This document shows, piece by piece, positions 3,445 through 53,716 of a DNA stretch of 64,000 nt (position 1 is its first letter; every line of letters starts with the position of its first letter). The notes under the pieces are model-generated. The model searched no databases and was not told the origin of the DNA. It saw nothing but the letters and a program-made list of their open reading frames with translations. Location of the stretch: assembly GCA_002898015.1 (NCBI GenBank), contig BDTM01000016.1, forward strand, positions 38,535-102,534. Reading direction: 5' to 3'. The translations under genes and the position numbers were made by a program. Source of the stretch: a bacterium BMS3Bbin03 (GTDB lineage Bacteria > Zhuqueibacterota > JdFR-76 > BMS3Abin05).

Positions 3445-3601
3445 AGGCAGGCGGGGCCGAATCAACCGGCAAAACGCCTCCCCTTCTCCTGCAGCGTCGG
3501 AAGCGACAGGATGATTTCGGAAGGGAAATTGTTTGGGTTTTGATGTGTTCTTTTTAGCGGGTTATTCATATTTGTTAATGATATAAAGCGAGAGTAATTG
3601 C

Positions 3602-6600: not shown

Positions 6601-8275
6601 TCAATTGTATGAAAAAGCGCATAATTCATACCGTTCTGCGGTGGTTCTGTTGTCCAGGCTCGAGAAGGCTTACCGGCCGGCGGCACCGGATTCAACCGCG
6701 CCGGACAGCTCGGCAGAGGATTCAACCCGAAATCAATCCATTCGTGTTTCGGAAAAGGACAGCACGCTGCGGGTGATGCAGCGCTGGGTCAACCGCTCGG
6801 CGGAAAAGACCTCTGAAATGCTTTACCGAATCGCCGATTTGGATTATGCTTCGATTGAACAAATTCTGTCGGCGCCCATTCCCGATGGCCTCGATCCGGT
6901 GGCGACTCTGGAATATCAGAATCAGGTCTATTTGAAGGCGGTGAAGCCTATTGTCGATAAAATTGTTCTGGCGCATCTGCGGACAATCAACGAAGCCGAT
7001 ACGCTTCAGCTTGAAAATAAATGGGTGAATCAGTCCCGTAAGAAGCTGCTGGCAATATTTGAGATTCTGCCGGCGAAGTACTACCAATTGGCGAAACGCA
7101 CCGTCGGGACCTATATAAAAATGAGGCACAGATACTATTACATCATGACAAAGGGGTCGGATACAGAGAAAGAAGACGCCTTATCCTTGGCCGGTGACTT
7201 GCTCAACGTGATTGATCTCGGGAAGAAGTACACCCAGATTATGACCCGGTTTTATCAATGGGAGCTGGACAATTTTCAAAATCACAATTTCCCGGACCGG
7301 TACACGAATCAGGCTTTGAATGAATATCTGTCGAATACGTACCAAATTGCCAATTCATACAAAGTGGAAGCGGATTCGGCCCGAGCCATGAAGGATTACT
7401 TCTCGGTGCTGAATCAGAAGGATCCGATGCCGGAATATGAAGACGCCATTTACACCTATTCGGACAATTTAAGTTCACTTCACGATGCAGCACTTGAAAT
7501 TGCGGCCGATGCGTACGATTACAAAAAATCACACAAATTGCAGAGTCCCGTCATCGGCAGCATCTCCGGTCTTCTGGTGGAACTCGATCCGGTCACCTAC
7601 GCGAAAGAATTCGCGGTTTCCACGGATTCCATTTACATTCCGGCGGACGACAGCTGGCTGGTAAACACATCGGTGGATTCAAATTGGATTCAGATGGATG
7701 ATCCCGATTCTTCCTGGCGTCATGCCGTTAGAATGCCGTGGGATTCCGCAGGACGGGTGCTTTTTCCCGGGGAAACGGCTTACAGCATCAACGTGCCGAT
7801 GGCGATGGACACCGTTTACAATGACACAACAGGCACAGATTCCGCCTCGGCGCCCGCACAGCCCGGCTATCATCTGGTTCCGAAAGAAGCTTATCCGGCC
7901 AATCTGTATTTCCGAAAAACATTTACAATCGACGATATTCCGGTCTCGGCAAACCTGAAAATTCAGGCCGATGATAACATGGAAATTTTTATGAATGGCG
8001 TAAAGGTTTTTCAGGAAAAAGCCGATACATTAGGGTGGAAACAAGCCTTCCCTGTTAATATGAATGATTTTATTCGGCAGGGGGAAAACAGGGTGGCTGT
8101 GCACGTTATAGACACCGATAGTACAAGGAAGGGCATGCGGGCGATCTTTCAAATTCAATTGCTGCGAAAGAAAGCGATAGAGAAGGTCAGCCGGACAGTG
8201 AAACAGGAAGAAGTCAATTATGAGAAGAATCTTGAAAGGCAAGCCTTCTTGCTCAATTATGTGCTGGTACCTTAA
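3602..8275 (+). CDS. Giant exported TPR-repeat protein (1557 aa) with C-terminal beta-sandwich-like domain
   Basis: Signal peptide (VIVLFIVSLVFMGSGKSFAQE) and many TPR-like units (ALYDLAYILAKQGKTVEALGYY; ALYKIGWANYLKGDYPSAIASF). The C-terminus reads LYFRKTFTIDD...IQADDNMEIFMNGVKV...GENRVAVHV, which resembles a galactose-binding-like jelly roll. Confidence 0.85.
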   Translation: MEKRKFQGWKKVIVLFIVSLVFMGSGKSFAQEPLIEKGEKSSNQVLLDSLINTFSAEDLIKFREFYGNEINRLKREKKLLREKNIQNVKQLLVENPNSHFIDKILLRLGEFYYQEAEETFLKKMDAYEKAYSEYEKGLRPNPPEEPKVDYSKALEKYRLIVDNFPKSSLYDDALYDLAYILAKQGKTVEALGYYREVATKYPESKYAPDALMQIGEYYFGLSVRNYDEAIKYYKSVLKYKDTPRYDEALYKIGWANYLKGDYPSAIASFTTLVQDIEKTKSVDYRSAYSNPALENESLEYIGIGFHDYGGLDEAVKYLSHLGYPDYGVPILIKLGDVYKTNEEKFLKAIAVYDTILYYYPDSPEAPKIQNKIVESFRRLEDTNGVYRAQREMFEKYHPGSAWAKAMKKKIPNLLLRRKTIRDATELVKKTLRQNINTLLTDAGKDSSLNYYKQAVANSRIYLNYFPDDSLAYTIHWNMAVVLDTKLNRDKEAYREYEKIAFDYSKDKYRKDAAQNAIAVANEILKKHHGKPVKSAVNDTSKISSFQKMAESGKEIAGLKPVKPDTLNADEMRLVQAYNNFIKLFPGDKDAAVALANAGILYYNKKQFEDALKYFNTLIARFPDSPELTQAQYTAMESYFGKQDFVGAEMMAKKIQSAVHAPKQVKEKARRRMSESIFLHAQSLAEKGDHLAAAGEYRRVVKEVPDASFADLALFQSAIEYDKVKEFNQAVEAYQYLIDHFASSKYYLDAMNNLALDYGELKAYKYAASTYERLWKATPDSAKAQDALYNSSFFFVKAKDWRNAIRINQRYVGKYPKSADAEDMFYNMAGYYLKLDDLEQANQIWDEFGNKYPNSPRGVETFFKRGEYFMNKGLHDQAIAEFDRALQRNNELKTKKLKTNDFYAAEALFSKSGLMYNDYKNIRFTLNNMNAQKERKKDLLKQLVSQYEQVAGYGTIRLYEATYDIGKVYEEFANTWNSQGIPEMSKTRRIVYLNKIHQTSTQLYEKAHNSYRSAVVLLSRLEKAYRPAAPDSTAPDSSAEDSTRNQSIRVSEKDSTLRVMQRWVNRSAEKTSEMLYRIADLDYASIEQILSAPIPDGLDPVATLEYQNQVYLKAVKPIVDKIVLAHLRTINEADTLQLENKWVNQSRKKLLAIFEILPAKYYQLAKRTVGTYIKMRHRYYYIMTKGSDTEKEDALSLAGDLLNVIDLGKKYTQIMTRFYQWELDNFQNHNFPDRYTNQALNEYLSNTYQIANSYKVEADSARAMKDYFSVLNQKDPMPEYEDAIYTYSDNLSSLHDAALEIAADAYDYKKSHKLQSPVIGSISGLLVELDPVTYAKEFAVSTDSIYIPADDSWLVNTSVDSNWIQMDDPDSSWRHAVRMPWDSAGRVLFPGETAYSINVPMAMDTVYNDTTGTDSASAPAQPGYHLVPKEAYPANLYFRKTFTIDDIPVSANLKIQADDNMEIFMNGVKVFQEKADTLGWKQAFPVNMNDFIRQGENRVAVHVIDTDSTRKGMRAIFQIQLLRKKAIEKVSRTVKQEEVNYEKNLERQAFLLNYVLVP

Positions 8276-8290
8276 TGGAAGGATGCAAAG

Positions 8291-8638
8291 ATGAAATGCC
8301 GTACGCTGGCGGGTATTTTTTTGACAACCGGTTTGTTTCTCTTCAGTCAATCGGTGAACGCTCAGGAAAAGCCGAAAGAAGCGAAACCCGTCCGCAAAAC
8401 GGCGTCGAAAGAGACAGTGCTGAAGGCCATGCATGTGGAGGCGCATATTGAAAAACCGAGTGTTTCCATTGTCCCAAAGCGTATCAAGCCTGAATTGAAA
8501 GAAGTCGAATTTATCCGCCGGTCTTTCAGCAAAGAGATCAAAAACGTGCCCAGGCAGCTTCTTTACCTTGAGATGAAAAACTCGAAAAAGAGACAGGTTG
8601 CGGAAGCACGCCGGATGTTGAAGAAAAAACGTAAATAA
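8291..8638 (+). CDS. Small secreted Lys/Glu-rich protein (115 aa), function unknown
   Basis: Signal peptide MKCRTLAGIFLTTGLFLFSQSVNAQE. It is tightly packed between the giant TPR gene and the TolQ-like gene. Confidence 0.6.
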   Translation: MKCRTLAGIFLTTGLFLFSQSVNAQEKPKEAKPVRKTASKETVLKAMHVEAHIEKPSVSIVPKRIKPELKEVEFIRRSFSKEIKNVPRQLLYLEMKNSKKRQVAEARRMLKKKRK

Positions 8639-8672
8639 CTTTATCCCCAAAACTGAAATAGGAGGTATGAAC

Positions 8673-9332
8673 ATGGGAGAATTAGTCCAAATATTCCATG
8701 CATTCAAAATCGGATCACCCGGCTGGCTCTTTATGTGGCTGTTGTTGGTTGCGGCCGTGTTTGTGGTGGCTCTCGCAGTTGAGCGGACTTATTTTATCGG
8801 AATCCGTTCAAATATGAATGCCGACAAATTCATGAAAGACATCCGTCAAATGGTGTCCAAAGGGCAGTATAAAGAGGCCGTTCAGGTTTGTGAAAAACTG
8901 AAAGACAAAGCCCTGCCCTACGTGATTGGAACCGGCCTGCGGGTTCTGGACAGCGAAGGAGAAGTGGATTTCCGGACCGTTCAGAATGCCGTCGACGAAG
9001 GCACACTGGAGATTATTCCAAAATTGCAGCAGCGGACCGGATGGCTGGCAACGCTGGGAAATGTGGCGACCCTGCTGGGTTTAATGGGAACGATTTACGG
9101 TCTGATTCTGGCCTTTAGCTCTGTTTCGGCTCCGGGCGTGGATGCGGCCGAAAAATCCCGTCTGTTGGCGGCCGGTATTTCAACCGCCATGAACACCACG
9201 CTGGTGGGTCTGTCCATTGCCATTCCGGCGGTGTTGGTTTACACGTACATCCACAACAAAACCATGGGAATTATCGACGAAATTGACGAACACACCGTAA
9301 AACTGATTAATTTAATTACAGGGAACAAATAA
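8673..9332 (+). CDS. MotA/TolQ/ExbB-family proton channel
   Basis: Three TM segments and the family-typical C-terminal half (LATLGNVATLLGLMGTIYGLI...AAGISTAMNTTLVGLSIAIPAV). GGAGG at 8661-8665 favours the ATG at 8673 over the track start at 8667. Confidence 0.85.
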   Translation: MGELVQIFHAFKIGSPGWLFMWLLLVAAVFVVALAVERTYFIGIRSNMNADKFMKDIRQMVSKGQYKEAVQVCEKLKDKALPYVIGTGLRVLDSEGEVDFRTVQNAVDEGTLEIIPKLQQRTGWLATLGNVATLLGLMGTIYGLILAFSSVSAPGVDAAEKSRLLAAGISTAMNTTLVGLSIAIPAVLVYTYIHNKTMGIIDEIDEHTVKLINLITGNK

Positions 9333-9871
9333 TGGCTTTCAAACCGTCTAAACGAAAAAGACGTCCGGAAGCGATTGAACCGGAGTTAAATCTGACACCC
9401 ATTATGAATTTAATGGTCGTGCTGATTCCATTGTTGCTGACATCGGCAGAATTTGTCAGATTGGGGGTCATCGAACTGAACCTCCCCCCGGCCGCAGGAT
9501 CCGCCATAACAGCCGTAACGAGACTGCCGCAGGAAATGCAGAAAAAACTGGATCTTACTGTGACGGTGACGGATCAGGGATTTTATATTGCCAGCAGTGC
9601 GGCGGTGGCGATGGGGAAATCGGGTAAGGGGCCGACAATTCCCAAATTGGTCGATCAATATGATTACAAGAAATTGTCCGATTACCTGTACAAAATCAAG
9701 CAAAAAGCCAAAGGCGTCTTTAAAGATTCAGACCACATCATCATTCTGGCGGAGCCGTCCATAAAATACCAGACGGTTGTCAGCACGATGGATGCTTCGA
9801 GGAGTATCCAGATGGATGGAAAACGGAAACCGCTTTTTCCGGATGTTTCCTTAGGCGCTACAGTTTTATAA
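9332..9871 (+). CDS. ExbD/TolR-family biopolymer transport protein
   Basis: N-terminal basic segment plus the LNLTPIMNLMVVLIPLLL TM helix typical of ExbD/TolR. The start overlaps the upstream stop (ATAATG). Confidence 0.8.
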   Translation: MAFKPSKRKRRPEAIEPELNLTPIMNLMVVLIPLLLTSAEFVRLGVIELNLPPAAGSAITAVTRLPQEMQKKLDLTVTVTDQGFYIASSAAVAMGKSGKGPTIPKLVDQYDYKKLSDYLYKIKQKAKGVFKDSDHIIILAEPSIKYQTVVSTMDASRSIQMDGKRKPLFPDVSLGATVL

Positions 9872-9895
9872 TTAATTTAAAGAACGGAGTTACAA

Positions 9896-10390
9896 ATGGC
9901 CTTTGTTCCTTCCCGAATAAAAAGGCACATCACCGGAACCGGTGAAGTAAAACTCAATCTGACATCGATGATGGACATGTTCACCATTATTCTGGTCTTC
10001 TTGTTAAAAGTGTATTCCAGTAACGGGCAGATGATACAGCCGTCTCACGATTTAACCTTGCCGAACTCTTCCGTGCAGAAACATGCGGAACAGGCGCTCA
10101 ATTTAAAGGTGTCGAAAGAATGGGTTGTTCTCAATGACAAACCGGTTGCAAAAATTGCGGATGTTGTGGCAATGAGGAGTCTGATCATTCCGCAACTGGC
10201 CCGCGTATTGAAAAAATATGCCACTGAAGCCCAAAAAATGGAAGAACTGTACGGCACGCCCTTTACGGGAAAAGTTGTGATTCAGGGGGATAAAGATTTG
10301 CCGTACAAAGTTTTGGTAAAAATAATGGCCACCTGCGGACGATCGGAGTATCCCAATATGAGGCTGCTGGTGTACCAGAACCATGGGTAA
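9896..10390 (+). CDS. ExbD/TolR-family biopolymer transport protein (second copy)
   Basis: KLNLTSMMDMFTIILVFLL TM helix and a periplasmic domain (VVIQGDKDLPYKVLVKIMATC). Confidence 0.8.
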   Translation: MAFVPSRIKRHITGTGEVKLNLTSMMDMFTIILVFLLKVYSSNGQMIQPSHDLTLPNSSVQKHAEQALNLKVSKEWVVLNDKPVAKIADVVAMRSLIIPQLARVLKKYATEAQKMEELYGTPFTGKVVIQGDKDLPYKVLVKIMATCGRSEYPNMRLLVYQNHG

Positions 10391-10415
10391 ATAATCGGAT
10401 TAGTCAAACCAAAAG

Positions 10416-11567
10416 ATGAGTCTGAACATGAAGCATAAAAATAAAAAATTATCGCCTTTTGAAGATGGAAGTGATGTAGCCGTTATGGAGAAGGAAAAAA
10501 GCGTCGTACGAAAGAGAGAGCGCGTCCCCGGAGATAACATTTCCTTTGACCCGGAAGTGTACAAAAAGCATGCTTTCCAGAAGCTGGATCGGCGATTCTG
10601 GGGGATTTTCCTGGCGACCTTTATTTTCAATACCCTGTTCATGCTTTACCTGTCAAACCTGCCGTACCAGATTTCTGAAGATTCGGCACGCCGAATGCAG
10701 GAACACTACGCAAATTTTATTTTTAAGAGACAGCCTAAAGCTCCGAAAGCAGCGGAAACGGGCAAAAATACGGAAGAAGCGGCCAAGAAAAAGGAAGCGG
10801 CTAAGAAAGCGGCGGAGGCGGAAATTGCAAAGGCGGAATCTGCCGCTTCCGGCAAAAGCAAGAGTCCAAAGGGATACACAACGGCAAAAGAGCGCGTAGC
10901 CGCAAAATCAAGAAGTACGAGGCAGATTGCGCAGGAAGTGAGCAAAAAGGGATTGTTAGCCTTATTGACCGGCACGGGCGAAACCGCAAAGGGGCAGGCG
11001 ATTGAAGATGTTTTGGGGAACGATGCCAGTCAAACCAATGGAAAAAATCTGGATAAAATTCTATCAAATATTGGGGGGATCAAAACGGCCGGCACTTCCG
11101 AAGATGTTGGAAACGGCGGCGGGGCCCGCGGCAGCCGTGCCACAAGTTCCGGTGCGTCTATTGGTGATATCGTGACAGGATTAGGCCAGGCCAACGCAAA
11201 ATCTGTTCGGAAAAGAACAAAAATGAAGCTGTTTCGGTCATCGAATGTGAAGGCGGAAACCGGTAAATCCGGCGGACGCAGTGCCCAAAGCGTTCTGGCC
11301 GTCATTAATTCTCACAAAGCCGCCATCGAATATTGTTACCAGAGAGCGCTGCGGACAAATCCGAATTTAAAAGGGAAGATTTCTGTGCGGTTTGTCATCC
11401 ATCCCGACGGCAGTGTGGGCAAGGTGACCATTGTGGAATCGACCTTAAACAACGCCGGTGTGGAGCGCTGTATTGTCAGTAAAATCCGGCGCTGGCGGGA
11501 TTTCGGTCCGGTGGATCCGTCCAAGGGCGACGCCGTGTTCAGACAGGATTATATTTTCGGCTATTGA
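10416..11567 (+). CDS. TonB-like protein with AgmX/PglI-type C-terminal domain
   Basis: One TM segment (FWGIFLATFIFNTLFMLYL) and a Lys/Ala/Glu-rich linker. The C-terminus reads AIEYCYQRALRTNPNLKGKISVRFVIHPDGSVGKVTIVESTLNNAGVERCIVSKIRRWRDF, the pattern I associate with the AgmX/PglI (GltJ/GltG) C-terminal domain. Confidence 0.75.
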   Translation: MSLNMKHKNKKLSPFEDGSDVAVMEKEKSVVRKRERVPGDNISFDPEVYKKHAFQKLDRRFWGIFLATFIFNTLFMLYLSNLPYQISEDSARRMQEHYANFIFKRQPKAPKAAETGKNTEEAAKKKEAAKKAAEAEIAKAESAASGKSKSPKGYTTAKERVAAKSRSTRQIAQEVSKKGLLALLTGTGETAKGQAIEDVLGNDASQTNGKNLDKILSNIGGIKTAGTSEDVGNGGGARGSRATSSGASIGDIVTGLGQANAKSVRKRTKMKLFRSSNVKAETGKSGGRSAQSVLAVINSHKAAIEYCYQRALRTNPNLKGKISVRFVIHPDGSVGKVTIVESTLNNAGVERCIVSKIRRWRDFGPVDPSKGDAVFRQDYIFGY

Positions 11568-11594
11568 CCCCCTATTTCACCACCATTCAAAAAA

Positions 11595-11623
11595 AGCCCC
11601 GAACACGCTTCGGAGCTTTTTTA
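11595..11623 (+). terminator. Rho-independent terminator after the TonB-like gene
   Basis: AGCCCCGAA-cacgc-TTCGGAGCT stem with one mismatch, followed by a T6 run. Confidence 0.65.
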
Positions 11624-11645
11624 TTGGGTATTTTTAAAATAATAC

Positions 11646-11675
11646 TTGAATTGTATTTAGCAGATTGTGTATATT
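11646..11675 (+). promoter_or_regulatory. Possible sigma-70-type promoter for aspS
   Basis: TTGAAT (11646-11651), an 18-nt spacer, then TATATT (11670-11675) preceded by TG. Confidence 0.35.
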
Positions 11676-11751
11676 ATAAGCCATTTATTGAGTTTTATTT
11701 TAATCTCCACCGGCAATTCATATTAATACGCGTGTTTGTGACAAAGAGGAT

Positions 11752-13569
11752 GTGTTGAAATTGGAAAAATTGGGAGACTGGAGACGCACGCACACCTGCG
11801 GCGAGCTGCGAAAGGGTCATGTCGGCAAAATGGTGACCCTGATGGGTTGGGTGGATCGCAGACGGGACCACGGCGGACTGATTTTTGTCGATATTCGTGA
11901 CCGCTACGGGAGATCGCAGATTGTCTTCAATCCGAAAACCAATCAGTCGGTTTATGAAAAGGCCAAGGAACTCCGGCCGGAATTTGTGATTGCGGTGCGC
12001 GGAATCGTTTCGGAAAGGCCGCCGGAATCTTTGAATCCGAAATTGGCGACGGGCGAGGTTGAACTGCGCGCCGGTGCATTAAAAATTTTAAATGTGTCCA
12101 AAACACCCCCCTTTCAAATGATTGCGGATTTAGACGTTTCGGAGGAATTGCGCCTGAAATACCGCTATCTGGATCTCAGACGCCCGAAAGTTCAAAAGAA
12201 TATCTTATTGCGGCACAAAGTGGCTCAAATTGTGCGCCGTTATTTTGACGAACAGGATTTTATTGAAATTGAAACGCCTTATCTGATGAAAAGCACACCG
12301 GAGGGCGCCCGGGATTTTCTGGTGCCGAGCCGGCTTCATAAGGGCAAATTTTTCGCCCTGCCGCAGTCGCCGCAAACATACAAGCAGATCCTGATGGTGG
12401 CCGGGTACGACCGCTATTTTCAGATTGTCCGCTGTTTCCGGGATGAAGATTTGCGGGCCGATCGTCAGCCGGAATTTACCCAAATCGATGTGGAAATGTC
12501 TTTCGTGCAGGAGGAAGCCATTTTTTTGATTATAGAGGGTTTGATGGAAGCCGTTTTTAAGGCGATTTTGGGTGAATCCCTTCCGCGGCCCTTTTTAAGA
12601 CTCTCTTACGGGGATGCCCTTCGCCGCTTTGGCGTCGATAAACCGGACCTTCGTTTTGGAATGGAAATTCAAACGGTGACGCACCTGCTCGGGGAAACGG
12701 AATTTGAGGTTTTTAATTCTGTGAGGGCGGCGGGCGGAAATATCGCAGGCATTGCCGTGCCGGACGGTGGTAAATATTCCAGGTCTCAACTAACCGAGTT
12801 CAATAAATATGCATTATCCTTTGGAGCGAAAGGCACGCTGCCGTTAAAAGTCGAAAGGGGTGCATTGAAGGGGCAGGCTGCAAAATTCTTACGGCCGGAA
12901 ATTCAGTCACAGATTATTGAACTCTTTCAGGCGAAGGAGGGAGATTTAATTCTCCTGATCGCCGGTCTGGATGATGTTGTGTATCGCTCGCTTGGCGCAC
13001 TGCGGCTGTATTTCGGCGAAAAATTAAACCTGATTGACACGTCTGTTCATAAACTTGTGTGGGTGGTTGATTTTCCGCTGCTGGAATTTGACCCGGATCA
13101 GGGCCGGTACGTGGCCATGCATCATCCGTTTACATCGCCCAAAGAGGAAGACTTTGAGTTGATGGAGGCGGAGCCTTCAAAGATTCGCGCCAGAGCTTAT
13201 GATCTTGTGCTGGACGGGAATGAGATCGCCGGGGGCAGCATTCGTATTCACCGGAAGGATATCCAGATGAAAATGTTTAGGCTGCTCGGAATATCCCCGG
13301 AAGAGGCTGAGAAGAAGTTCGGATTTTTGCTTCACGCATTCGAGTACGGCGCTCCCCCGCACGGCGGAATTGCATTTGGTTTTGATCGGCTCGTCATGAT
13401 TCTGGCCGGCGAAAAATCCATTCGGGAGGTTATTCCGTTTCCGAAGACGACCAGCGCCATATCCTTAATGGATGGGGCTCCAGCGGAGGTCGACCAGGAG
13501 CAATTAAAAGAGTTGGGGATCCGGGTCGTGGAAACGGAAGATAGTCCGCCGGGGGAGAGAAAAAAATAG
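11752..13569 (+). CDS. aspS: Aspartate--tRNA ligase
   Basis: GWVDRRRDHGGLIFVDIRDRYG OB-fold N-terminus. Class II motifs are present (FFALPQSPQ, FRDEDLRADRQPEFTQID, GGSIRIH, GFDRLVM). The exact start is uncertain (GTG 11752, TTG 11755 or TTG 11761). Confidence 0.95.
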   Translation: MLKLEKLGDWRRTHTCGELRKGHVGKMVTLMGWVDRRRDHGGLIFVDIRDRYGRSQIVFNPKTNQSVYEKAKELRPEFVIAVRGIVSERPPESLNPKLATGEVELRAGALKILNVSKTPPFQMIADLDVSEELRLKYRYLDLRRPKVQKNILLRHKVAQIVRRYFDEQDFIEIETPYLMKSTPEGARDFLVPSRLHKGKFFALPQSPQTYKQILMVAGYDRYFQIVRCFRDEDLRADRQPEFTQIDVEMSFVQEEAIFLIIEGLMEAVFKAILGESLPRPFLRLSYGDALRRFGVDKPDLRFGMEIQTVTHLLGETEFEVFNSVRAAGGNIAGIAVPDGGKYSRSQLTEFNKYALSFGAKGTLPLKVERGALKGQAAKFLRPEIQSQIIELFQAKEGDLILLIAGLDDVVYRSLGALRLYFGEKLNLIDTSVHKLVWVVDFPLLEFDPDQGRYVAMHHPFTSPKEEDFELMEAEPSKIRARAYDLVLDGNEIAGGSIRIHRKDIQMKMFRLLGISPEEAEKKFGFLLHAFEYGAPPHGGIAFGFDRLVMILAGEKSIREVIPFPKTTSAISLMDGAPAEVDQEQLKELGIRVVETEDSPPGERKK

Positions 13570-25884: not shown

Positions 25885-25900
25885 TGGCTTTATTTTTGCA
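25885..25900 (+). promoter_or_regulatory. Candidate sigma-54 (-24/-12) promoter
   Basis: TGGCTTTATTTTTGCA. GG (25886-7) and GC (25898-9) are 12 nt apart, as in TGGCAC-N5-TTGCA. It lies 61 nt upstream of the receiver-PATAN gene. Confidence 0.5.
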
Positions 25901-25960
25901 GTATTAATAGGCTTATGCGAATTCAGGGGAAAATTCTAATCAAACAAGTAAGGTAGAAAA

Positions 25961-27550
25961 ATGGCAAATACGAAAACAATTTTAATTGTGGACGACGATG
26001 CACAAAATATTGAAATTCTTGTCCATGAACTGGTGCGTAAGCGGTTTCAGGTGAGCACGGCCGAGAACGGATATGACACCCTGGAAAAGGCTAAAAAGTA
26101 TCAGCCGGATTTAATCATTACCGATGCGGATTTGCCCGATTTAAGCGGCGTCGCTTTATTGCAGCGGCTCAGGCAGGATGAAAAAACCGTTTCCATTCCG
26201 GTTATTTTTCTCACCGCCCAGGATGGATTGCAGGACCGGCTGCGTGCTTTTGAATTAGGCGTGCGCGACTATATGATCAAACCCCTGCACGTGTCGGAAA
26301 TCGGAGCCCGTGTGAAAATGATTTTCAACCGTCTTCAACGATTGGAAACGGCGGCGTCCGGCATGGATTCCAGATATCAGGGGAAATTGGACGAGAAGTG
26401 TCTGGCAGAACTGATTACTCAGCTCGGTGCCAAACGCTGGACGGGAATTTTGAATCTTACCAACGAATTTAAAAAAAGCGGCCAGGTTTTTTTCAAAAAG
26501 GGAATGATCGTCAACGCAATCCTCGGGGGGTTTCGGGCCGAACGCGCCATTTACCAAATGATGCCCTGGGCAAAAGGACTTTTTTCGATTGTGCCTCAAC
26601 AGGTTGAAGTGGAAGACGAAGTCTCGATCAGCAATCTCGGAATCCTTCTGCATGGGTATGAATGTTTGAAACAACGGCAGGAGCTTTTAAACAAATTGCC
26701 GTCGCCTTACGCCATTTTTTCCGTCAAATCTCATTTTTTAAAACTGCTGGAAGAACGGCCGGTAACGCCCGATGTGACAAAATTTGTCGATTTATTTGAC
26801 GGTCAGCATTCGGTTCTGAAAATTCTGGATGACAGCCATTATGACGACCTGACGACACTTACCCGCATCGTAAAAATGTACAGGCAGGGGTTTCTGGAAG
26901 AATTAATCGTTTCTGAACCGGAGGAGGAACCTGCCGGCGAAGAAGATTTGGAAGCCGTGTTGAGTGAAGAGGAATTTGATACCTTCCAAAAACGCGTGTT
27001 CAGACCGGTTGCCGCAATGGAACCGTTTCTTCTGATTCTTGGAACGGCGAACAGCGGCAAGGGTGAATTTGTGCAAACGCTTGTTGGAAAGCACTATCGG
27101 ACACGGTCCGTGAAAAAAGTCTTTCCGCACGCCCTGGATATTGGGAAATTAAGGCTTTACGAAGAAAATGACATCCTGATTGTTGGAATTCCTGTTGAGA
27201 AACAGGTTCGGACGATCGTTCAATCCGTTTCGGATAACTTGCTGGGGTACATTTTTATTGTAAATGCAACAGAACCTGAAAGCCTCGACTATCTGAATTA
27301 TTTAATCAAATCTTTTAGAGGCCGTTTTCAGCTTCCCTACGTGGTGGCGGTAACCCATCTTCGTCATCCCAAGGCGCTTGGGATTGAAGAGATCTCACAA
27401 AAGTTGGGACTGGAAAGCTATGAAGAATTGATTCCCTGCGATCCGAAAGACAAAGAAAATGTGAAGGTGATTTTACTCAATATGTATTCTCCTTATCCCG
27501 AAAAGAAAAAACTGACTTTTAGCTTAAGCGAAAAACTGGTAACAAACTAA
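25961..27550 (+). CDS. Response-regulator receiver + PATAN (DUF4388) + C-terminal degenerate MglA-like GTPase domain
   Basis: Intact REC (IVDDD, IITDADLPD, FLTAQ, IKPL). The PATAN-like core is LAELITQLGAKRWTGILNL...GQVFFKKGMIVNA. The C-terminal P-loop is GTANSGKG (27041-27064), with GIPVE in place of DxxGQ and THLR in place of NKxD. Confidence 0.7.
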   Translation: MANTKTILIVDDDAQNIEILVHELVRKRFQVSTAENGYDTLEKAKKYQPDLIITDADLPDLSGVALLQRLRQDEKTVSIPVIFLTAQDGLQDRLRAFELGVRDYMIKPLHVSEIGARVKMIFNRLQRLETAASGMDSRYQGKLDEKCLAELITQLGAKRWTGILNLTNEFKKSGQVFFKKGMIVNAILGGFRAERAIYQMMPWAKGLFSIVPQQVEVEDEVSISNLGILLHGYECLKQRQELLNKLPSPYAIFSVKSHFLKLLEERPVTPDVTKFVDLFDGQHSVLKILDDSHYDDLTTLTRIVKMYRQGFLEELIVSEPEEEPAGEEDLEAVLSEEEFDTFQKRVFRPVAAMEPFLLILGTANSGKGEFVQTLVGKHYRTRSVKKVFPHALDIGKLRLYEENDILIVGIPVEKQVRTIVQSVSDNLLGYIFIVNATEPESLDYLNYLIKSFRGRFQLPYVVAVTHLRHPKALGIEEISQKLGLESYEELIPCDPKDKENVKVILLNMYSPYPEKKKLTFSLSEKLVTN

Positions 27551-27566
27551 TTCAGGAGACCCGTCG

Positions 27567-28748
27567 TTGAACAAAATTCTGTTCATTGAGCCAGATGAAA
27601 AACTTGCTGCCGAATTTCAAAATATAATGGAGCCGGAAGAATTCGAAGTTAATTCGGCCGATTCTATGGAAGAGGCTCAGAACCTTTTGGAATCCTATTC
27701 GCCGCAAGGCGTCATTTTTGAGGCGCGTTTGCCTGAAAGCGGCTCAATCTCCCGGCTGAAGCAGCTTCGTGAAAGTTCTCCTGCCCAGGATATATTTTTT
27801 ATCGCTTTAAGTGAAGAGAGCGACGTGAATAAACGCGTTAACTTGATTGAAAGCGGCGTGGATGACTATATTCAGAAACCTTTTGAAGTGGAAGAGCTGC
27901 TGTTCCGTATTCGGATGCTTTTGCGTGAAAGAAAAAATTTTATTGAAAACGGCCCCGTTAAATTTTACGGCTTCAATGGGCTGCTTTCCGAAATGAATGT
28001 GATCGACCTGATTCAAACGCTTGAGTTGGGGAAAAAATCCGGTGTCATTGTACTCAATCGCGGCGCGATAGAAGGCAAAATATTCATCAAAGACGGCGTT
28101 GTCTGGGATGCGGCAGTAGGCCCGTTTAAGGGCGAACCGGCGCTGTATCAATTGGTCCTCTGGATGGATGGGAATTTCTCCGTGACATTTCAAAAGATTC
28201 ATCAAGAGCAGGGTATTTTTAGCCCGGTACAGGAAGTCATTCAGCGGAGTATCCAATTAATTGATGAAAAGGAACGGCTGCTCGCACATTTGCCGTCGAT
28301 ATATACGATTTTTGAACAGGTGCGGGATCTATTTCCGGATGAATTATATGAAGTTACGAATGAAATTTTATCTCATGTGGATGATGTACACACCCTCCAG
28401 GATATTCTGGATGAAACCACACTCGATGAGTTAGATGCCCTGCGGGAAATCATTCGCCTTTATCAATTGGGGGTTCTCCGGGAATCTGTGTCCTATCGTC
28501 TTTCCGTGCAGCAGGAACCGTCTTCGGCGGAGCAGAACCCGGAAGTCGAGCAGGATTTGGAAAGTACCCTTATTTCGAGGACATTCGACGCCATTCAGAA
28601 CTTTTTTAATCAAATGGCCGCCTCAGAGATAAGACAGTCTGATAAAGATGAATATGAGACTGTTTCGAAAGAGAACGGAATTGTTTTTAGCAGGAAGCTT
28701 GCTTTGAGCCGCAGCGAACTGCAATTTATTAAGCACAAACTTTTGTAA
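27567..28748 (+). CDS. Pseudo-receiver (Glu at phospho-acceptor position) + PATAN (DUF4388) protein
   Basis: REC-like N-terminus with VIFEARLPE (E52, nt 27720-27722) where the upstream paralogue has IITDADLPD. PATAN core VIDLIQTLELGKKSGVIVLN...GKIFIKDGVVWDA. TTG start 8 nt after AGGAG. Confidence 0.7.
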   Translation: MNKILFIEPDEKLAAEFQNIMEPEEFEVNSADSMEEAQNLLESYSPQGVIFEARLPESGSISRLKQLRESSPAQDIFFIALSEESDVNKRVNLIESGVDDYIQKPFEVEELLFRIRMLLRERKNFIENGPVKFYGFNGLLSEMNVIDLIQTLELGKKSGVIVLNRGAIEGKIFIKDGVVWDAAVGPFKGEPALYQLVLWMDGNFSVTFQKIHQEQGIFSPVQEVIQRSIQLIDEKERLLAHLPSIYTIFEQVRDLFPDELYEVTNEILSHVDDVHTLQDILDETTLDELDALREIIRLYQLGVLRESVSYRLSVQQEPSSAEQNPEVEQDLESTLISRTFDAIQNFFNQMAASEIRQSDKDEYETVSKENGIVFSRKLALSRSELQFIKHKLL

Positions 28749-28777
28749 CACCCAGGCGTTTTGGAAAGGAATACTGT

Positions 28778-29266
28778 ATGCGGATTGGTGAGATTTTAAT
28801 TATTGGGCCAAAAAGTGTCGGCAAAGAGGCACTTTTACAAAAGCTCTGCACACAGATTGAGACTCATGAGAAGGGATTTGAACTTGGGCTGCTGCCGCTC
28901 GACAATGAAATACTTTTACATTTTTATGGGATTCCCTGGTCCCACTACGCCAGAAGCACCGCCTGGGATTTAATTGCATCAAAAGCACTTGGGGCCATTA
29001 TTTTGTTTGATTGGGCCCGCCCCGAAACGGTTAAAACGGCCGAAGAAATTGTTGAATTTTTCCAGATGAACGCTACGCTGCCGATTCTTGTGGCTTCGAA
29101 GATCGAGGGCGATGAAGCATCCAAAATTGCGATTCATGCCTACAGCGGCGGTTTGCAGCTTTCCAGATCCTGTAAATTCACTTTTTACCATCCGGAACAA
29201 ACAGATTCTTTGCGCCAACTCATTGTAGATCTTGTGAATATTAATCTGGAACAATTAGCCGTTTAA
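28778..29266 (+). CDS. Small MglA/Ras-like protein with degenerate nucleotide-binding motifs (162 aa)
   Basis: G1 is GPKSVGKE (28805-28828; Glu where Ser/Thr is expected). Switch II is FYGIPWS (no Gln). G4 is ASKIE instead of NKxD. Confidence 0.6.
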   Translation: MRIGEILIIGPKSVGKEALLQKLCTQIETHEKGFELGLLPLDNEILLHFYGIPWSHYARSTAWDLIASKALGAIILFDWARPETVKTAEEIVEFFQMNATLPILVASKIEGDEASKIAIHAYSGGLQLSRSCKFTFYHPEQTDSLRQLIVDLVNINLEQLAV

Positions 29267-29280
29267 ACGATGAGGTTATC

Positions 29281-29682
29281 ATGACATACACAGAAGTGGC
29301 TCGAAAAGAACTCTCGCTGGCTCAAAAAGTAGAAGCAATTTATCGTTTATTAAAAGGTATTTCATTCGATGACCTCATCGATTCCTATAAAAATGAAGAT
29401 GCCGTCGCGCTGCAGAAATTTGTGTGGGATAAAACCGTCGAAATCGGATTGCGGATGAGAGGGAAAGATTTTAGTCGAAAAGAGATTACCGGACGAATGA
29501 TTCCCACACCGGTTTACCAGCGGCAGCAGGGCTGTTCGGAACGGATTTATTACTGCAAGGCCACCCTGTGCATTCTTTCCAACCCCAAATGTGCCCGGAA
29601 AAAATTAAAAGGGCAATTTCGGATCTTGCAGGATTCGGTTCAGGAATGGATTTATGCCTCCGGCCGGGAATTGAATGTTTGA
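29281..29682 (+). CDS. Hypothetical Cys-rich protein (133 aa)
   Basis: Last ORF of the cluster, with a C-x7-C-x4-C-x6-C cluster (CSERIYYCKATLCILSNPKC). I recognise no family. Confidence 0.5.
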   Translation: MTYTEVARKELSLAQKVEAIYRLLKGISFDDLIDSYKNEDAVALQKFVWDKTVEIGLRMRGKDFSRKEITGRMIPTPVYQRQQGCSERIYYCKATLCILSNPKCARKKLKGQFRILQDSVQEWIYASGRELNV

Positions 29683-29800: not shown

Positions 29801-29829
29801 TTGACATTACTTTAAAAAGTTTTTATATT
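29801..29829 (+). promoter_or_regulatory. Near-consensus sigma-70-type promoter for tRNA-Leu / tig operon
   Basis: TTGACA (29801-29806), an exact 17-nt spacer, then TATATT (29824-29829). It lies about 68 nt upstream of the tRNA. Confidence 0.6.
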
Positions 29830-29897: not shown

Positions 29898-29980
<83 letters not shown>

Positions 29981-38440: not shown

Positions 38441-38851
38441 ATGAAAATTCTCATGCTTTATGTGAATCGATTTTCATATAAAACCGCTTCGAAAGGTCTT
38501 GAAGGCGTTCCTGATCTTGATGAAGAAAATGAATTTAAAAATGCGGTTGTCGGGTTTGTACATCTGGAAGAAAAGGACGAAGAATCTGTCGCCGGCGCCA
38601 TCACAAAGTTAATCAAAAACCTGAAATGGCTGGCCGGAAAATGGAACACAAAAACGGTTGTACTGCACTCTTTTGCACATCTGGCGGAGAGCAAGGCATC
38701 TGCGGAGACTGTGGGGGAAGTGTTTGCCCGGGCGCGGGCGCGTCTGGAGGCCTCCGGCTACACGGTTGGCGAAACCCCTATCGGCTATTTCCTGGATCTT
38801 CATGTGGATGCGCCCGGTAAATCTCTGGCCCGCGTGTGGAAATCGTTTTGA
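38441..38851 (+). CDS. Free-standing archaeal-type threonyl-tRNA synthetase editing domain homologue (tRNA-Thr-ED-like)
   Basis: 136 aa, colinear with my memory of the Pyrococcus ThrRS N-terminal editing domain. MKILMLYVNRFSYKT matches MRVLLIHSDYIEYEV. VVLHSFAHLAES matches VFVYPFAHLSSE. GETPIGYFLDLHVDAPGKSLA matches [21 protein letters not shown]. Confidence 0.65.
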   Translation: MKILMLYVNRFSYKTASKGLEGVPDLDEENEFKNAVVGFVHLEEKDEESVAGAITKLIKNLKWLAGKWNTKTVVLHSFAHLAESKASAETVGEVFARARARLEASGYTVGETPIGYFLDLHVDAPGKSLARVWKSF

Positions 38852-39847: not shown

Positions 39848-40816
39848 ATGCTGACCATTCCTTTGAATCAGATAATCGATCAGGATGATTTTTACCGGAT
39901 CACTTTTTTGCCGGATTTGCGGCCCCTTGTGGAATCGATGAAGCGAATCGGACAGAGTCAGCCGATTTTGGTGCAGCCTGTTTCAGGGGTTTTTTACAGA
40001 ATCGTATCCGGGTTTAAGCGTTTTTGGGCGGCAAAGGAATTAAATTGGTCCGATATCCGGGCTGAAACGGCAGAGGTTGATTCGGAACAGCCCTTTTCTC
40101 TTTTTCAAAAATCTCTTTTTGAAAATCTGGCAATTCGCCAATTGAATTGGGTTGAAAAGGCTTTTGTGCTGCAGAAATTAGTGCAACAATTTCAAATACC
40201 CCGGGAAAAAATAATATCGGAATGGCTGCCGATTTTAAACATCGGGAAAAATCAAAAATGGCTGGTATGGCTGTCAAAAATCCCGGACTACGAACTTATT
40301 GTGAAGGAAGCGATTGCGAAAGACGAAATCACCTTTGACTTATTTGAGTTTTTTCCTGCGCTTTCTGCAGATGATCGCGTGGCTCTTGTTCAATTTTACC
40401 GCGAGTTGAAATTGGGAAAAAATCGCCAGAAGGAATTCTTCTACTTGTTACGCGATGTGATGCAGCGCGATAATACTTCAATGACTCATCTTTTGGAAAA
40501 TCAGGATGTTCAACAGATTGTAAAAGCCGAAGACCTTGCACTTGGAAATAAAGTTCAAAAGATCAGGGGGATTTTACGCCGGTGGCGCTACTCGTCTATG
40601 AATGAGATGGAAAAGAGATTTCGCGAAATTGTTCACAGCCTGCGCCTGCCGCCGGGCATTCAACTCCTGCCGCCGCAGAATTTTGAAGGAGATAAATTCC
40701 GAATGACGTTTACATTTCGGACGCCGGAGGATTTTTCCGGAGTAGTCGCAAAACTTCAGGAGATCACGGCTTCCGGTGACCTCACGGCGCTCACCTCATT
40801 GTGGGAAGCTGACTGA
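39848..40816 (+). CDS. ParB N-terminal (ParB/Srx-fold) domain protein
   Basis: The N-terminal ~80 aa (LRPLVESMKRIGQSQPILVQP...YRIVSGFKRFWAAKEL) fit the ParB-like nuclease/CTPase domain. The remainder is unrecognised. The stop overlaps the next start (TGATG). Confidence 0.65.
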   Translation: MLTIPLNQIIDQDDFYRITFLPDLRPLVESMKRIGQSQPILVQPVSGVFYRIVSGFKRFWAAKELNWSDIRAETAEVDSEQPFSLFQKSLFENLAIRQLNWVEKAFVLQKLVQQFQIPREKIISEWLPILNIGKNQKWLVWLSKIPDYELIVKEAIAKDEITFDLFEFFPALSADDRVALVQFYRELKLGKNRQKEFFYLLRDVMQRDNTSMTHLLENQDVQQIVKAEDLALGNKVQKIRGILRRWRYSSMNEMEKRFREIVHSLRLPPGIQLLPPQNFEGDKFRMTFTFRTPEDFSGVVAKLQEITASGDLTALTSLWEAD

Positions 40817-41928
40817 TGCCTTACCGGAAATATATCCCGGAAAAAATCATTGTGGAAAAGCGGGTCTGGGAGCTTCCCTGGACACAGGAAATACTGTCGC
40901 GTATGAAGGGCCTGCCGGTCCGGAAAATTTCCACAATTGAGGAAGAAGCTCTGGCCTGTCAAAAAGCCGTAATTTCCCCGGAGGAATCGCTTAAAACGCT
41001 GGCATTGGCGCAGCAGTCCGGTAAGTTTTTAAAACCCTGTCCCGGCACGTCCAACTACGTGTGCTGCGGATATTATTTTCTAAACATTGCCACCAATTGC
41101 GATGTGAATTGCACCTACTGCATTTTGCAAAGTTACCTGAATATTCCATTCATGGTCGTGTACACAAATATCGAAGATGCATTTCGTGAAACGGATGGTG
41201 TGCTGGGTGCGCATAAATTTCCGCTCTACCGAATCGGGACCGGTGAGTTGACGGACAGTTTAACCCTTGAACACATAACACACATGAGTGAAAAGCTCAT
41301 TCCCTATTTTGCGCAAAAAAAGAATGCCATTCTGGAACTCAAGACCAAAACCACACAAATTGAAAACCTGCTTCATCTGGAGCACAACCGGAAAATTGTT
41401 GTTTCCTGGTCCTTGAATCCGGATGAAATCATTCGAACGGAAGAAAAAAATGCCCCGTCACTGAAGGAACGTCTGGACGCAGCCCGGAAAGTGGATGCGG
41501 CCGGGTATCGGCTGGGCTTTCACTTCGATCCGATGATCGATTACCCCAATTGGGAAAGCGGCTATAAGGATGTGATTGGCAGATTGTTTGCCGCCGTTCA
41601 TTCCGGAAACATTGCCTGGATCAGCCTGGGAGCACTTCGTTATCCGGCACAAATGGATCGGCTGATTCGTGAACGGCATCCGGAAAGCAAGATTGTGTTG
41701 GGTGAATTGCTGCCCGGAAAGGACGGAAAATTGCGTTATTTCAGGATGCTGCGCCAGAGAATGTTTCGGAAGATGGTCGACTGGATTCATTCTCATGATC
41801 CGAATGTAACGGTCTACTTCTGCATGGAAAGCCCGGAGGTATGGAAATATGCTTTCCGGGAGCAGGTGCTTCAAAAATGCCCTTTACCCGGAATGCTCGA
41901 CAGATCTGTGTTTGAGTGGGCCAAATAA
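40816..41928 (+). CDS. Spore-photoproduct-lyase-family radical SAM enzyme
   Basis: CDVNCTYC (CX3CX2C) cluster. It is colinear with B. subtilis SplB as I recall it (N-terminal YIPEKIIVEKRVWELP; AARKVDAAGYRLGFHFDPM). Confidence 0.7.
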   Translation: MPYRKYIPEKIIVEKRVWELPWTQEILSRMKGLPVRKISTIEEEALACQKAVISPEESLKTLALAQQSGKFLKPCPGTSNYVCCGYYFLNIATNCDVNCTYCILQSYLNIPFMVVYTNIEDAFRETDGVLGAHKFPLYRIGTGELTDSLTLEHITHMSEKLIPYFAQKKNAILELKTKTTQIENLLHLEHNRKIVVSWSLNPDEIIRTEEKNAPSLKERLDAARKVDAAGYRLGFHFDPMIDYPNWESGYKDVIGRLFAAVHSGNIAWISLGALRYPAQMDRLIRERHPESKIVLGELLPGKDGKLRYFRMLRQRMFRKMVDWIHSHDPNVTVYFCMESPEVWKYAFREQVLQKCPLPGMLDRSVFEWAK

Positions 41929-49568: not shown

Positions 49569-49578
49569 AGTAAATCGT

Positions 49579-50949: not shown

Positions 50950-50998
50950 AAATGGCATATTTGTTGCACTTTTCGCTGTAAAAAAAGCCGTTTTTAAA

Positions 50999-51418
50999 AT
51001 GAAAATTTTACTCATTGAAGACGAAAAATTACTGCTTTGGTCTTTAAAGAGATCCTTAGCCAGGGAGGGCTTCGAGGTCATTGCTGAGGATAGCGGGGAA
51101 AAAGCATTCGGATGGCTTCCTAAATGTACGTTTGACTGGGTTATCACGGATTACCGGCTGCCGGGGATCAACGGCCTGGAAGTATTGCGTGAGGTGAAGC
51201 AGTGCCAGCCTAATGTGAAGACAATGATGCTTTCGGCTTTCGGCTCTCCTGAACTTCTAAAAGATTTAGAACAGGACGGAATCCTTTGTTTTTTGCCAAA
51301 GCCATTTAGTATTGATGAGCTCATTAAGACTCTTCGGGAAACATCATTGAACACGGTCAAAAAGAATCGTTTTTCGCTGCCGCTTTTATTGGTTCTCGGC
51401 TTCGCTTTTATTGGATGA
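50999..51418 (+). CDS. Single-domain response regulator (receiver only)
   Basis: LIEDE, VITDYRLPGINGLE, MLSAFG and LPKPF. The last ~25 aa are hydrophobic. Confidence 0.8.
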   Translation: MKILLIEDEKLLLWSLKRSLAREGFEVIAEDSGEKAFGWLPKCTFDWVITDYRLPGINGLEVLREVKQCQPNVKTMMLSAFGSPELLKDLEQDGILCFLPKPFSIDELIKTLRETSLNTVKKNRFSLPLLLVLGFAFIG

Positions 51419-51604: not shown

Positions 51605-51720
51605 ATATTGAGATGAAAATGGGAAGTATCGGCGTTACATTTGGAATTCAGGAATGATCAGGAATAAAACAAAAGGTCACTGTTTTGGTGAAAAATCCAT
51701 TCGATATTTCGGTTAATAAA

Positions 51721-52821: not shown

Positions 52822-52875
52822 AGATGATGTTGATGGACACTTATAATAATAATTCTACCAAAGGGAGGTGAAAAA

Positions 52876-53580: not shown

Positions 53581-53663
53581 TTTTCTTGGCAGATTTACGT
53601 TTGAATAAATTCTACGTCGGAACATTAACCCGTAAATGGGTATTGAACCGGAGCAAAAGTACT

Positions 53664-53700: not shown

Positions 53701-53716
53701 TAAAAAGGTTTTACGG

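Follow-up and report, generated by a model that had tools for sequence, protein, structure and literature searches.

Within a 64,000-nucleotide stretch of the genome of the bacterium BMS3Bbin03 (GTDB lineage Bacteria; Zhuqueibacterota; JdFR-76; BMS3Abin05; GenBank assembly GCA_002898015.1, contig BDTM01000016.1, positions 38,535 to 102,534 of the forward strand), here called the window, lies an operon of four co-directional genes, P1 to P4 (Table 1). P1 is a response regulator in which a receiver domain (REC), a PATAN (DUF4388) domain, and a linker are followed by a GTPase-like domain (P1-G). P2 consists of a receiver, a PATAN domain, and a tail; P3 is a stand-alone small protein of predicted GTPase fold, and P4 is a protein with four conserved cysteines. 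The genes are separated by spacers of 16, 29, and 14 nucleotides, in this order. A previous inspection of the bare DNA sequence (the sequence-only reading) had reported four co-directional genes behind a sigma-54-like element, with the architectures REC-PATAN-GTPase-like for P1 and REC(Asp to Glu)-PATAN for P2. The open reading frames (ORFs), the Pfam matches, and the diagnostic residues agree with this description, and the promoter site is conserved. The subject of this report is the protein unit that these genes encode in duplicate and the apparent decay of the nucleotide-binding motifs in its GTPase-like modules.

Both receivers and both PATAN domains score above the Pfam cutoffs: the receiver model (PF00072; curated cutoff, 30.2 bits) gives 89.5 bits for P1 and 52.2 bits for P2, and the PATAN model (PF14332; gathering cutoff, 25 bits) gives 36.5 and 52.2 bits, respectively. 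The PF14332 match in P1 covers amino acids (aa) 140 to 234 (expect value [E], 6e-9), and a local PATAN hidden Markov model (HMM) spans about 180 residues; in P2, the receiver and PATAN domains occupy aa 4 to 115 and aa 138 to 235 (both E 8e-14). The phosphorylation-site residues are complete in the P1 protein of the window (DDD...TD...LT...KP). In a 12-ortholog alignment, the phospho-acceptor of P1 is Asp in the lineage of the window and Glu in the KSB1-type orthologs; locus L024 has Glu as well. The P2 protein of the window carries Glu at this position. Because the acceptor varies among Glu, Asp, and Ala in P2 orthologs and the conserved Lys is gone in three of them (L007, L009, and L015), we consider P2 to contain a pseudo-receiver.

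P1 and P2 are collinear (BLASTP E 5e-38), and their alignment, which runs through the receiver, the PATAN domain, an acidic linker, and finally an F-D-x-x-Q-x-x-F helix, stops at aa 354 in both proteins. At this helix, P2 terminates and the G domain of P1 starts, and the gene that follows P2 encodes the free G-fold P3. Thus, P2 and P3 together represent a split copy of the fused P1, and the operon encodes one three-module unit (REC-PATAN-G) twice. This arrangement is old, given that paralogous systems share the P1-P2-P3 triad. A single 779-aa ORF that matches both P1 (E 3e-180) and P2 (E 2e-98) was found in the KSB1 metagenome-assembled genome (MAG) 4484_219 (L014:2838-5177); it could be a natural P1-P2 fusion or a deletion, or else an assembly artifact.

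Table 1. Coordinates of the operon, its protein domains, and the adjacent signals in the window
Feature	Position	Strand	Basis or remark
Sigma-54-type promoter element TGGCTTTATTTTTGCA, -24 GG/-12 GC spacing	25885..25900	+	Sequence read
P1, REC-PATAN-linker-G-like response regulator, 529 aa	25961..27550	+	ORF, Pfam
P1 receiver domain, aa 7-118, intact active site (DD, D, T, K)	25979..26314	+	Pfam PF00072, E 2e-25
P1 PATAN/DUF4388 plus helical extension, aa about 140-318	26378..26914	+	Pfam PF14332, local HMM
P1 G-like domain, aa about 356-507	27026..27481	+	G1 GTANSGKG, G3 GIPVE, THLR at the G4 position; AlphaFold2
P2, pseudo-receiver-PATAN-tail, 393 aa, TTG start	27567..28748	+	ORF, Pfam
P3, stand-alone small-GTPase-fold protein, predicted pseudo-GTPase, 162 aa	28778..29266	+	HMM, HHalign, AlphaFold2
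P4, four-Cys protein, 133 aa	29281..29682	+	ORF, ortholog alignment
P4 invariant motif C85-x6-C92-x4-C97-x6-C104	29533..29592	+	Invariant columns, alignment A5
Terminator-like hairpin 3' of P4	29761..29775	+	Consensus scan; pattern match only
Strong sigma-70-like promoter for tRNA-Leu	29801-29829	+	Consensus scan; pattern match only
tRNA-Leu gene	29898-29980		Downstream of the operon

Pfam returned nothing significant for P3, P4, or the last 200 residues of P1, and an NCBIfam scan of the four proteins added nothing to the Pfam matches. The fold of the C-terminal part of P1 was therefore addressed with an AlphaFold2 model of aa 340 to 529 built on a 12-sequence alignment. The model has a predicted local distance difference test score (pLDDT) of 77 (85 to 95 in the core) and a predicted template modeling score (pTM) of 0.76, and it contains the complete order of strands and helices, b1-a1-b2-b3-a2-b4-a3-b5-a4-b6-a5, with G-I-P at the end of b3 and T-H-L-R past b5, the positions of the G3 and G4 motifs. 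A Foldseek search of the PDB with this model yielded 1709 matches at E ≤1e-3, the 50 best-scoring of which are all G domains with a template modeling (TM) score of about 0.6. The matches include FeoB (E 7e-9), Arf/Arl proteins, and Myxococcus xanthus MglA (6h17; TM score, 0.62; root mean square deviation, 3.9 Å). As modeled, the small-GTPase fold of the P1 C terminus is well supported.

For P3, the AlphaFold2 model is less confident (pLDDT, 62; pTM, 0.66), and its top Foldseek matches all belong to the Ras superfamily, namely, IRGQ (a pseudo-GTPase in its own right), Rab5, Miro, and KRAS. The P3 protein of the window aligns end to end with an HMM of the broader G-domain family (E 1e-17), and the best matches of the P3 HMM are canonical stand-alone GTPases, for example, P0206 (E 9e-20). 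The small-GTPase fold of P3 is strongly supported by the HMM comparison and more weakly by structure. Direct profile searches of PDB sequences gave weak P-loop and Rab matches (E 0.01 to 0.1) for P1-G and nothing useful for P3. The two G modules had been described as paralogous to each other, and a comparison of the P1-G and P3 ortholog profiles with HHalign agrees (probability, 92.9%; E 3.7e-7), with 101 columns in register, so that the P-loop falls on the P-loop, G-I-P on G-I-P, and b4/b5 on b4/b5. A BLASTP comparison of the P1 C terminus with P3 did not detect the relationship; it produced an out-of-register match only and is superseded by the HHalign result.

The G modules can be linked to canonical GTPases through their stand-alone relatives, which carry GxxxxGKT, FGTPGQ, VDS, and NKQD. 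The P3 and P1-G profiles reach such GTPGQ/NKQD proteins at E 1e-15 to 1e-20; from there, P0206 connects to Arl8/Arf at 5e-10 and to full-length MglA at 3e-5, so that the link to MglA is transitive. GTPGQ is the G3 motif common to Groups 2 to 5 of the MglA family, and PATAN genes lie close to some of the MglA genes of Groups 1 and 5 (Wuichet and Sogaard-Andersen, PMC4316618). Because both the canonical relatives and MglA Groups 2 to 5 carry GTPGQ, the VGIPVE of P1 and the YGIPWS of P3 can be read as decayed GTPGQ, a decay that has removed the catalytic Gln as well as the DxxG Gly. Fold, profile, and motif comparisons suggest that the G modules descend from GTPGQ-type members of the MglA family of prokaryotic small GTPases. 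The designation "MglA-like" in the sequence-only reading is valid in this broad sense only: the nearest canonical relatives are of the GTPGQ type (MglA Groups 2 to 5/COG2229), and Arf and FeoB structures match the P1-G model equally as well as MglA does.

The motifs quoted in that reading are present, that is, GTANSGKGEF, VGIPVEKQ, and VAVTHLRH in P1 and GPKSVGKE, YGIPWS, and VASKIE in P3. The G1, G3, and G4 positions of P1 (GTANSGKG, GIPVE, and THLR) and of P3 (GPKSVGKE, GIPWS, and SKIE) depart from the motifs of active GTPases. An exhaustive profile search with the P1 G domain retrieved 674 representative clusters at E ≤1e-3, 215 of them at E ≤1e-10; given these 674 clusters, the failure of a word-index search with P1 aa 301 to 529 to find anything, even the protein of the window itself, is a sensitivity artifact. 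Architectures and motifs were counted in the best 150 of the 674 representatives, which comprise 54 REC-PATAN-G proteins, 33 PATAN-G proteins, and 42 proteins with the G domain alone. Run on 107 of these 150, Pfam assigned DUF4388 to 48, REC to 26, and Arf, ATP_bind_1, or Ras to 44. NKxD and PGQ are missing from every one of the 54 REC-PATAN-G representatives (0/54 each), and the Walker A motif is canonical in 9, partial in 11, and absent in 31, with the respective stretch missing from the remaining 3. On these counts, motif loss is a trait of the family, and REC-PATAN-G is a large, uncharacterized family rather than a one-off.

The P-loop region of P3 is not conserved across 13 orthologs, where it reads GPKSVGKE, STGGTGVE, GAKANDNSE, or TTNIDLARG, and the P3-like proteins of triads that lack P4 have no P-loop. 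On its sequence, P3 is a candidate class i pseudoGTPase, a class of G-folds that lack the nucleotide-binding motifs and do not bind nucleotide. The G1 region of P1 takes the form S-x-DDDCKD in the KSB1-type orthologs and GSVRAGRR in L024. Overall, the G-domain family is a graded series, from canonical GTPGQ/NKxD forms to forms free of a P-loop, all of them under strong selection.

The ratio of nonsynonymous to synonymous substitution rates (dN/dS) is 0.05 for the REC-PATAN part of P1, 0.08 to 0.09 for P1-G, 0.08 for P2, 0.07 to 0.11 for P3, and 0.04 to 0.06 for P4, compared with 0.05 to 0.07 for the adjoining SpoIID gene. Values of 0.04 to 0.11 rule out that these are decaying genes. Full-length P1 orthologs form 12 clusters with 48 to 100% identity. 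P3 has five close clusters among 5.8 billion proteins, and every contig that contains one encodes P1-P2-P3-P4 in this order. Gene order on these contigs largely matches that of the window (HisRS, SpoU, Rce1, SpoIID, tetrad, tRNA-Leu, Tig, ClpP, ClpX, and Lon). The tetrad is also kept in L007 to L009 (P1 identity, 58% and 48%); the genes 3' of it in L007 and L008 differ from those in the window, and the L009 contig stops right past P4. In KSB1/Zhuqueibacterota and "Cytophagia" MAGs (L010 and L016 to L018), the tetrad lies past a long ExbB-ExbD-ExbD cluster or PurL, directly downstream of the former in L010 and L017 and after the latter in L018. In L024, from a MAG with 62% GC, it is found among LpxB, LpxK, a sigma-54 activator, Peptidase_MA, LpxL, and heptosyltransferases. 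The order of the tetrad is thus retained in at least four different genomic contexts, beyond background synteny, and the four genes, for which co-conservation in relatives had been a suggested check, are conserved together under purifying selection.

Lipid A-related genes follow the tetrad in several of these loci, including Peptidase_MA_2 and an LpxL-type lipid A acyltransferase in L017:10380-12205, L018:10323-12172, and L024:13848-15707 and an LpxL-type acyltransferase and an MsbA-like ABC transporter in L010:14485-17347. On the upstream side, a conserved 213-aa protein, the N-terminal domain of which is cyanophycin-synthase-like (PF18921), adjoins P1 in L016:1116-1757, L017:5070-5711, and L018:4863-5504. 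No homologs of the 358-aa and 208-aa KSB1 neighbors were detectable in L024. P1-P2-P3-like triads without P4 make up the paralogous systems of L019 to L022 (positions about 8000-12200 in each), where they always come after a pair of TRAM/U5-methyltransferase and SpoU methylase genes, and of L023:10001-15062. The named sources are Calditrichota ("Deferribacteres" in some MAG records) and KSB1, which are also the only phyla named among 30 representatives of the wider family. Calditrichota and KSB1/Zhuqueibacterota both belong to the FCB group. Public annotations of the proteins read "response regulator," "DUF4388 domain-containing protein," or "signal recognition particle receptor subunit beta." A role in antiphage defense was considered and rejected, PADLOC having matched the receiver domains only.

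P4 is the most conserved of the four genes, and its orthologs come after P3 in every type-A locus. The sequence-only reading called it Cys-rich, a term that holds only as far as the four invariant Cys residues, which are intact even in the 62% GC ortholog of L024. The protein is small with a basic C-terminal half; it matched nothing in Pfam, NCBIfam, the PDB, or PADLOC, and a PDB search with its profile did not retrieve MglB. In the type-A subfamily, P4 is probably an obligate partner, and it may bind metal or sense redox.

The pattern TGGC-N7-TTGCW, to which the promoter element upstream of P1 conforms, has 5 matches in the window compared with 1.3 expected, and none of 100 shuffled sequences reached 5; the remaining exact matches are at 7188, 33455, 45011 (+ strand), and 50953. 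In six loci of the lineage of the window, TGGC-N2-TATTTTTGCA is nearly invariant 5' of P1 within diverged flanking DNA, at -73 to -76 in four loci (including L001, L005, and L012) and at -212/-215 in L004/L013. A conserved sigma-54-type promoter is thus predicted to precede the operon in this lineage. In more distant lineages, the site 5' of P1 is replaced by TTGACA-N17-TATATT, and L024 has a sigma-54-like site together with an activator gene two genes upstream.

Parts of this architecture occur in several known systems. The fold of P1-G and P3 is common to MglA Groups 2 to 5, including the CvnD/COG2229 type, and the G-I-P of the window appears to be a relic of their GTPGQ; here, however, G1, G3, and G4 have decayed, a Roadblock/MglB partner is lacking, and the proteins probably do not run a GTP cycle. 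One G copy here is fused to REC-PATAN, whereas the MglA survey took single-domain proteins only (PMC4316618). The absence of a Roadblock/MglB GTPase-activating protein, pointed out from the sequence, was borne out for the operon and the roughly 45 window ORFs scanned, none of which matched Robl_LC7. The PatA-type regulators of cyanobacteria (PatA, PixG, PixE, and LsiR) likewise combine PATAN/DUF4388 with a CheY-like receiver; PATAN is an output domain that, in PixE/PixG, binds PilB1 and PilC, and some of these regulators are phosphorylation independent (10.1101/2021.06.11.447907). In contrast to the PATAN-then-REC order of PatA-type proteins, REC is N terminal in P1 and P2. In addition, P1 has an appended G-like domain and sits in an operon with a split paralog, a predicted pseudo-GTPase, and a four-Cys protein, and the phyla differ (Calditrichota/KSB1 here and cyanobacteria there).

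The MglA-MglB-RomR/RomX module of Myxococcus xanthus, which organizes surface-motility machines, also joins a small Ras-like G protein with receiver-domain proteins, but it requires GTP binding and hydrolysis and a Roadblock GTPase-activating protein. The corresponding motifs are missing here, and no MglB-, RomX-, or RomY-like proteins were detected. The actinobacterial conservon (CvnA kinase, CvnB Roadblock, CvnC, and CvnD GTPase) is similarly a four-gene set of two-component-type parts and an MglA-family G protein; however, CvnD is canonical as a GTPase and is paired with a Roadblock protein, and the conservon has no PATAN, fused/split duplication, or four-Cys protein. [quoted passage not shown] IRGQ is the top structural match of the P3 model; kinship between these proteins and P1/P3, whose status is a prediction from primary structure, does not extend past the superfamily. 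Full-text literature searches found PATAN-REC regulators and neighborhoods of PATAN, MglA, and MglB genes and no REC-PATAN-G fusion, tetrad, or bacterial pseudo-GTPase partner, in line with the view already taken in the sequence-only reading that this is not a described system.

Strong selection on motif-poor G modules points to a bacterial "pseudo-GTPase" scaffold over a working GTP switch. The reading that we prefer, with a probability of roughly one half, is that the G-folds form an interaction scaffold without a GTP cycle that is switched by the P1 receiver and delivers its output through PATAN to an envelope machine. The G-folds would serve as protein-protein interaction modules, the nucleotide-free pseudo-GTPase P3 docking on P2 to rebuild a P1-like unit, pairing with the P1 G domain, or both. 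The input to the switch would be phosphorylation of the intact P1 receiver by an unlinked kinase, with the P2 receiver (Glu, Ala, or lost Lys) as a fixed-state partner. By analogy with the action of PixE/PixG on PilB1/PilC, the output could pass through the two PATAN domains to a membrane machine, so that the complex would recruit or gate an inner-membrane-associated envelope machine. Candidate machines are, by neighborhood, envelope biogenesis (SpoIID/Rce1 or Peptidase_MA-LpxL-MsbA) or ExbBD-type motors and, by the PATAN literature, type IV pilus motors. Transcription of the operon would be sigma-54 dependent in the lineage of the window. A more elaborate version, a "G-protein system without a nucleotide," is tentative and less probable: in it, the fused and split units would pair via their decayed MglA-type G-folds, receiver phosphorylation would replace the GTP cycle, the four-Cys partner would be included, and lipopolysaccharide (LPS)/outer-membrane assembly or a motor driven by proton motive force or ATP would be positioned or gated. 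If true, this would be the first bacterial signaling family built on pseudo-GTPases, kept in hundreds of sequence clusters.

Several observations weigh against the scaffold reading. GxxxxGKS is kept in 10 of the 12 P1 ortholog clusters, the exceptions being that of the window (GKG) and P0016 (GKN); the P-loop Lys does not vary in alignment A3, nor in the "DDDCKD" forms; and the type-B P1-like proteins of L019/L020 keep GxxxSGKS/GxxxxGKS. Because most P1 orthologs retain GxxxxGKS, nucleotide binding by P1-type domains may persist. The claim that almost every catalytic motif is degenerate accordingly stands for G1, G3, and G4 of P1 and P3 in the window, but it does not extend to P1 orthologs in general as regards the P-loop Ser, the loss of which is specific to the lineage of the window. 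The structural model of P3 is of low confidence (see above). Since KSB1-type P1 proteins have Glu as the acceptor, phosphorylation cannot be the universal input. Furthermore, no target machine consistently adjoins the tetrad: the ExbBD, LpxL, and SpoIID surroundings vary by lineage and could be background synteny.

The main rival to the scaffold model is that GKS-type P1 domains still use nucleotide, such that P1-G would bind and hydrolyze ATP or GTP without base-specific contacts, P3 would coregulate it through G-domain dimerization in the manner of dimerization-activated GTPases, and the nucleotide state would be part of the signal. In addition to the GKS motifs of the 10 P1 orthologs and of the type-B proteins, such a noncanonical nucleoside triphosphatase would account for the invariance of the P-loop Lys and of a Glu/Lys pair past G-I-P in alignment A3 and for the recognition of some relatives by the Arf, ATP_bind_1, and Ras models of Pfam. 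It is harder to reconcile with the GKG of the window and the GKN of P0016, with the 31 of 54 REC-PATAN-G proteins that lack a P-loop, and with the absence of NKxD or the Gly-Gln of PGQ from all 54. Moreover, the KSB1-type and L024 orthologs encoded in the same tetrad read S-x-DDDCKD and GSVRAGRR, respectively, and therefore the conserved function of the module cannot depend on a P-loop; we consider continued nucleotide use rather unlikely. A different proposal concerns the target only and is compatible with the scaffold mechanism: the system would act on biogenesis of the cell envelope (outer membrane, LPS, or peptidoglycan) rather than on motility or polarity, placing lipid A/LPS assembly or remodeling of the wall under the influence of a two-component signal. 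The Peptidase_MA_2 and LpxL-type genes that follow the tetrad in L017, L018, and L024, the LpxL and MsbA-like genes that follow it in L010, its position amid LpxB, LpxK, and heptosyltransferase genes in L024, and the Rce1-like protease and SpoIID/LytB genes that precede it in the lineage of the window all fit this target. Nevertheless, neighborhoods vary by lineage, housekeeping genes are often syntenic anyway, type-B triads come after rRNA/tRNA methylases, and the sole experimental knowledge of PATAN concerns type IV pilus motors, so that this choice of target is doubtful.

The sequence-only reading had drawn an analogy with the polarity switches of myxobacteria. Carried over to this operon, a receiver-controlled, GTP-cycling MglA-like protein would steer the "Agl/Glt-like" motor encoded 14 kb upstream. 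In favor of this, receiver and pseudo-receiver proteins accompany G domains of MglA-family descent here; L010 and L017 have an ExbB-ExbD-ExbD cluster, a different one, immediately 5' of the tetrad; and in Myxococcus, SgmX and PATAN proteins are found together (PMC11580455). However, domains without G1, G3, and G4 make a myxobacterial-style GTP-cycle polarity switch unlikely, and neither MglB nor Roadblock was found in the operon or the window ORFs scanned. In addition, the upstream cluster of the window is generic, lies 11 housekeeping genes away, and is not homologous at the phmmer level to the KSB1 ExbB cluster, and ExbBD adjacency is lacking in L018 and L024. Taken together, the analogy is disfavored, and a polarity oscillator of this type is very improbable. 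Equally little speaks for a transcriptional role of the operon, with DNA bound either by P4 or by the helical stretch that follows PATAN; this is the least probable of the readings. The original description of PATAN, as relayed in 10.1101/2021.06.11.447907, proposed a helix-turn-helix (HTH) in PatA, and P4 is small, unannotated, and basic in its C-terminal half. Conversely, Pfam and NCBIfam detected no HTH or other DNA-binding family in the four proteins, and cyanobacterial work speaks against DNA binding by PatA-type regulators (10.1101/2021.06.11.447907).

Small Ras-like GTPases with PATAN and receiver partners are at the core of bacterial polarity control, and bacterial pseudo-GTPases are almost undescribed. 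The REC-PATAN-G family, all members of which come from uncultured lineages, would lend itself to the question of what remains for a G-fold to do without nucleotide, and PATAN, whose only tested function is pilus-motor binding, gains a new widespread partner. The fused-versus-split duplication predicts complexes of P2 with P3 and of P1-G with P3.

The cluster previously labeled an Agl/Glt-like envelope motor occupies positions 502-11567 of the window. It encodes TPR proteins of 980 and 1557 aa, the second with YfiO/BamD-like and GH2_N-like stretches as well, followed by ExbB, ExbD, ExbD, and a protein of 383 aa that matches TonB_C weakly. The domains found are all generic (MotA_ExbB, two ExbD, weak TonB_C, and TPR), Glt-specific families not having been searched for, and the label is replaced here by that of a generic Ton/Tol-type envelope system, as which we treat the cluster. 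It was not found within 10 kb upstream of the module in L001, L005, L007, or L008 (the distance in the window is 14 kb). ExbBD linkage, present in L010 and L017, partly present in L016, and absent from L018, L024, and the lineage of the window, was rejected as a part of the system.

Other features of the window include a sigma-54 two-component system at 48048-51418, a row of genes for a histidine kinase with a HAMP domain, an activator of the NtrC type (REC-Sigma54_activat-HTH_8), and a single-domain receiver, with the sigma-54-like sequence TGGCATATTTGTTGCA (50953-50968) directly 5' of the receiver gene. A free-standing 136-aa "archaea-specific" ThrRS editing domain (PF08915; E 2e-34) is encoded at 38441-38851 and also in the syntenic loci L004 and L005. 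A gene for a ParB_N-domain protein, followed at once by one for a spore-photoproduct-lyase-like radical S-adenosylmethionine protein, is located at 39848-41928, and an NHL-repeat propeller protein, two multiheme cytochromes (Paired_CXXCH), and a SurA-like peptidyl-prolyl isomerase are encoded together at 51685-55323. Across the whole window, nearly all long ORFs are on the + strand and every 2-kb bin shows a positive GC skew, a pattern compatible with one leading-strand replichore arm.

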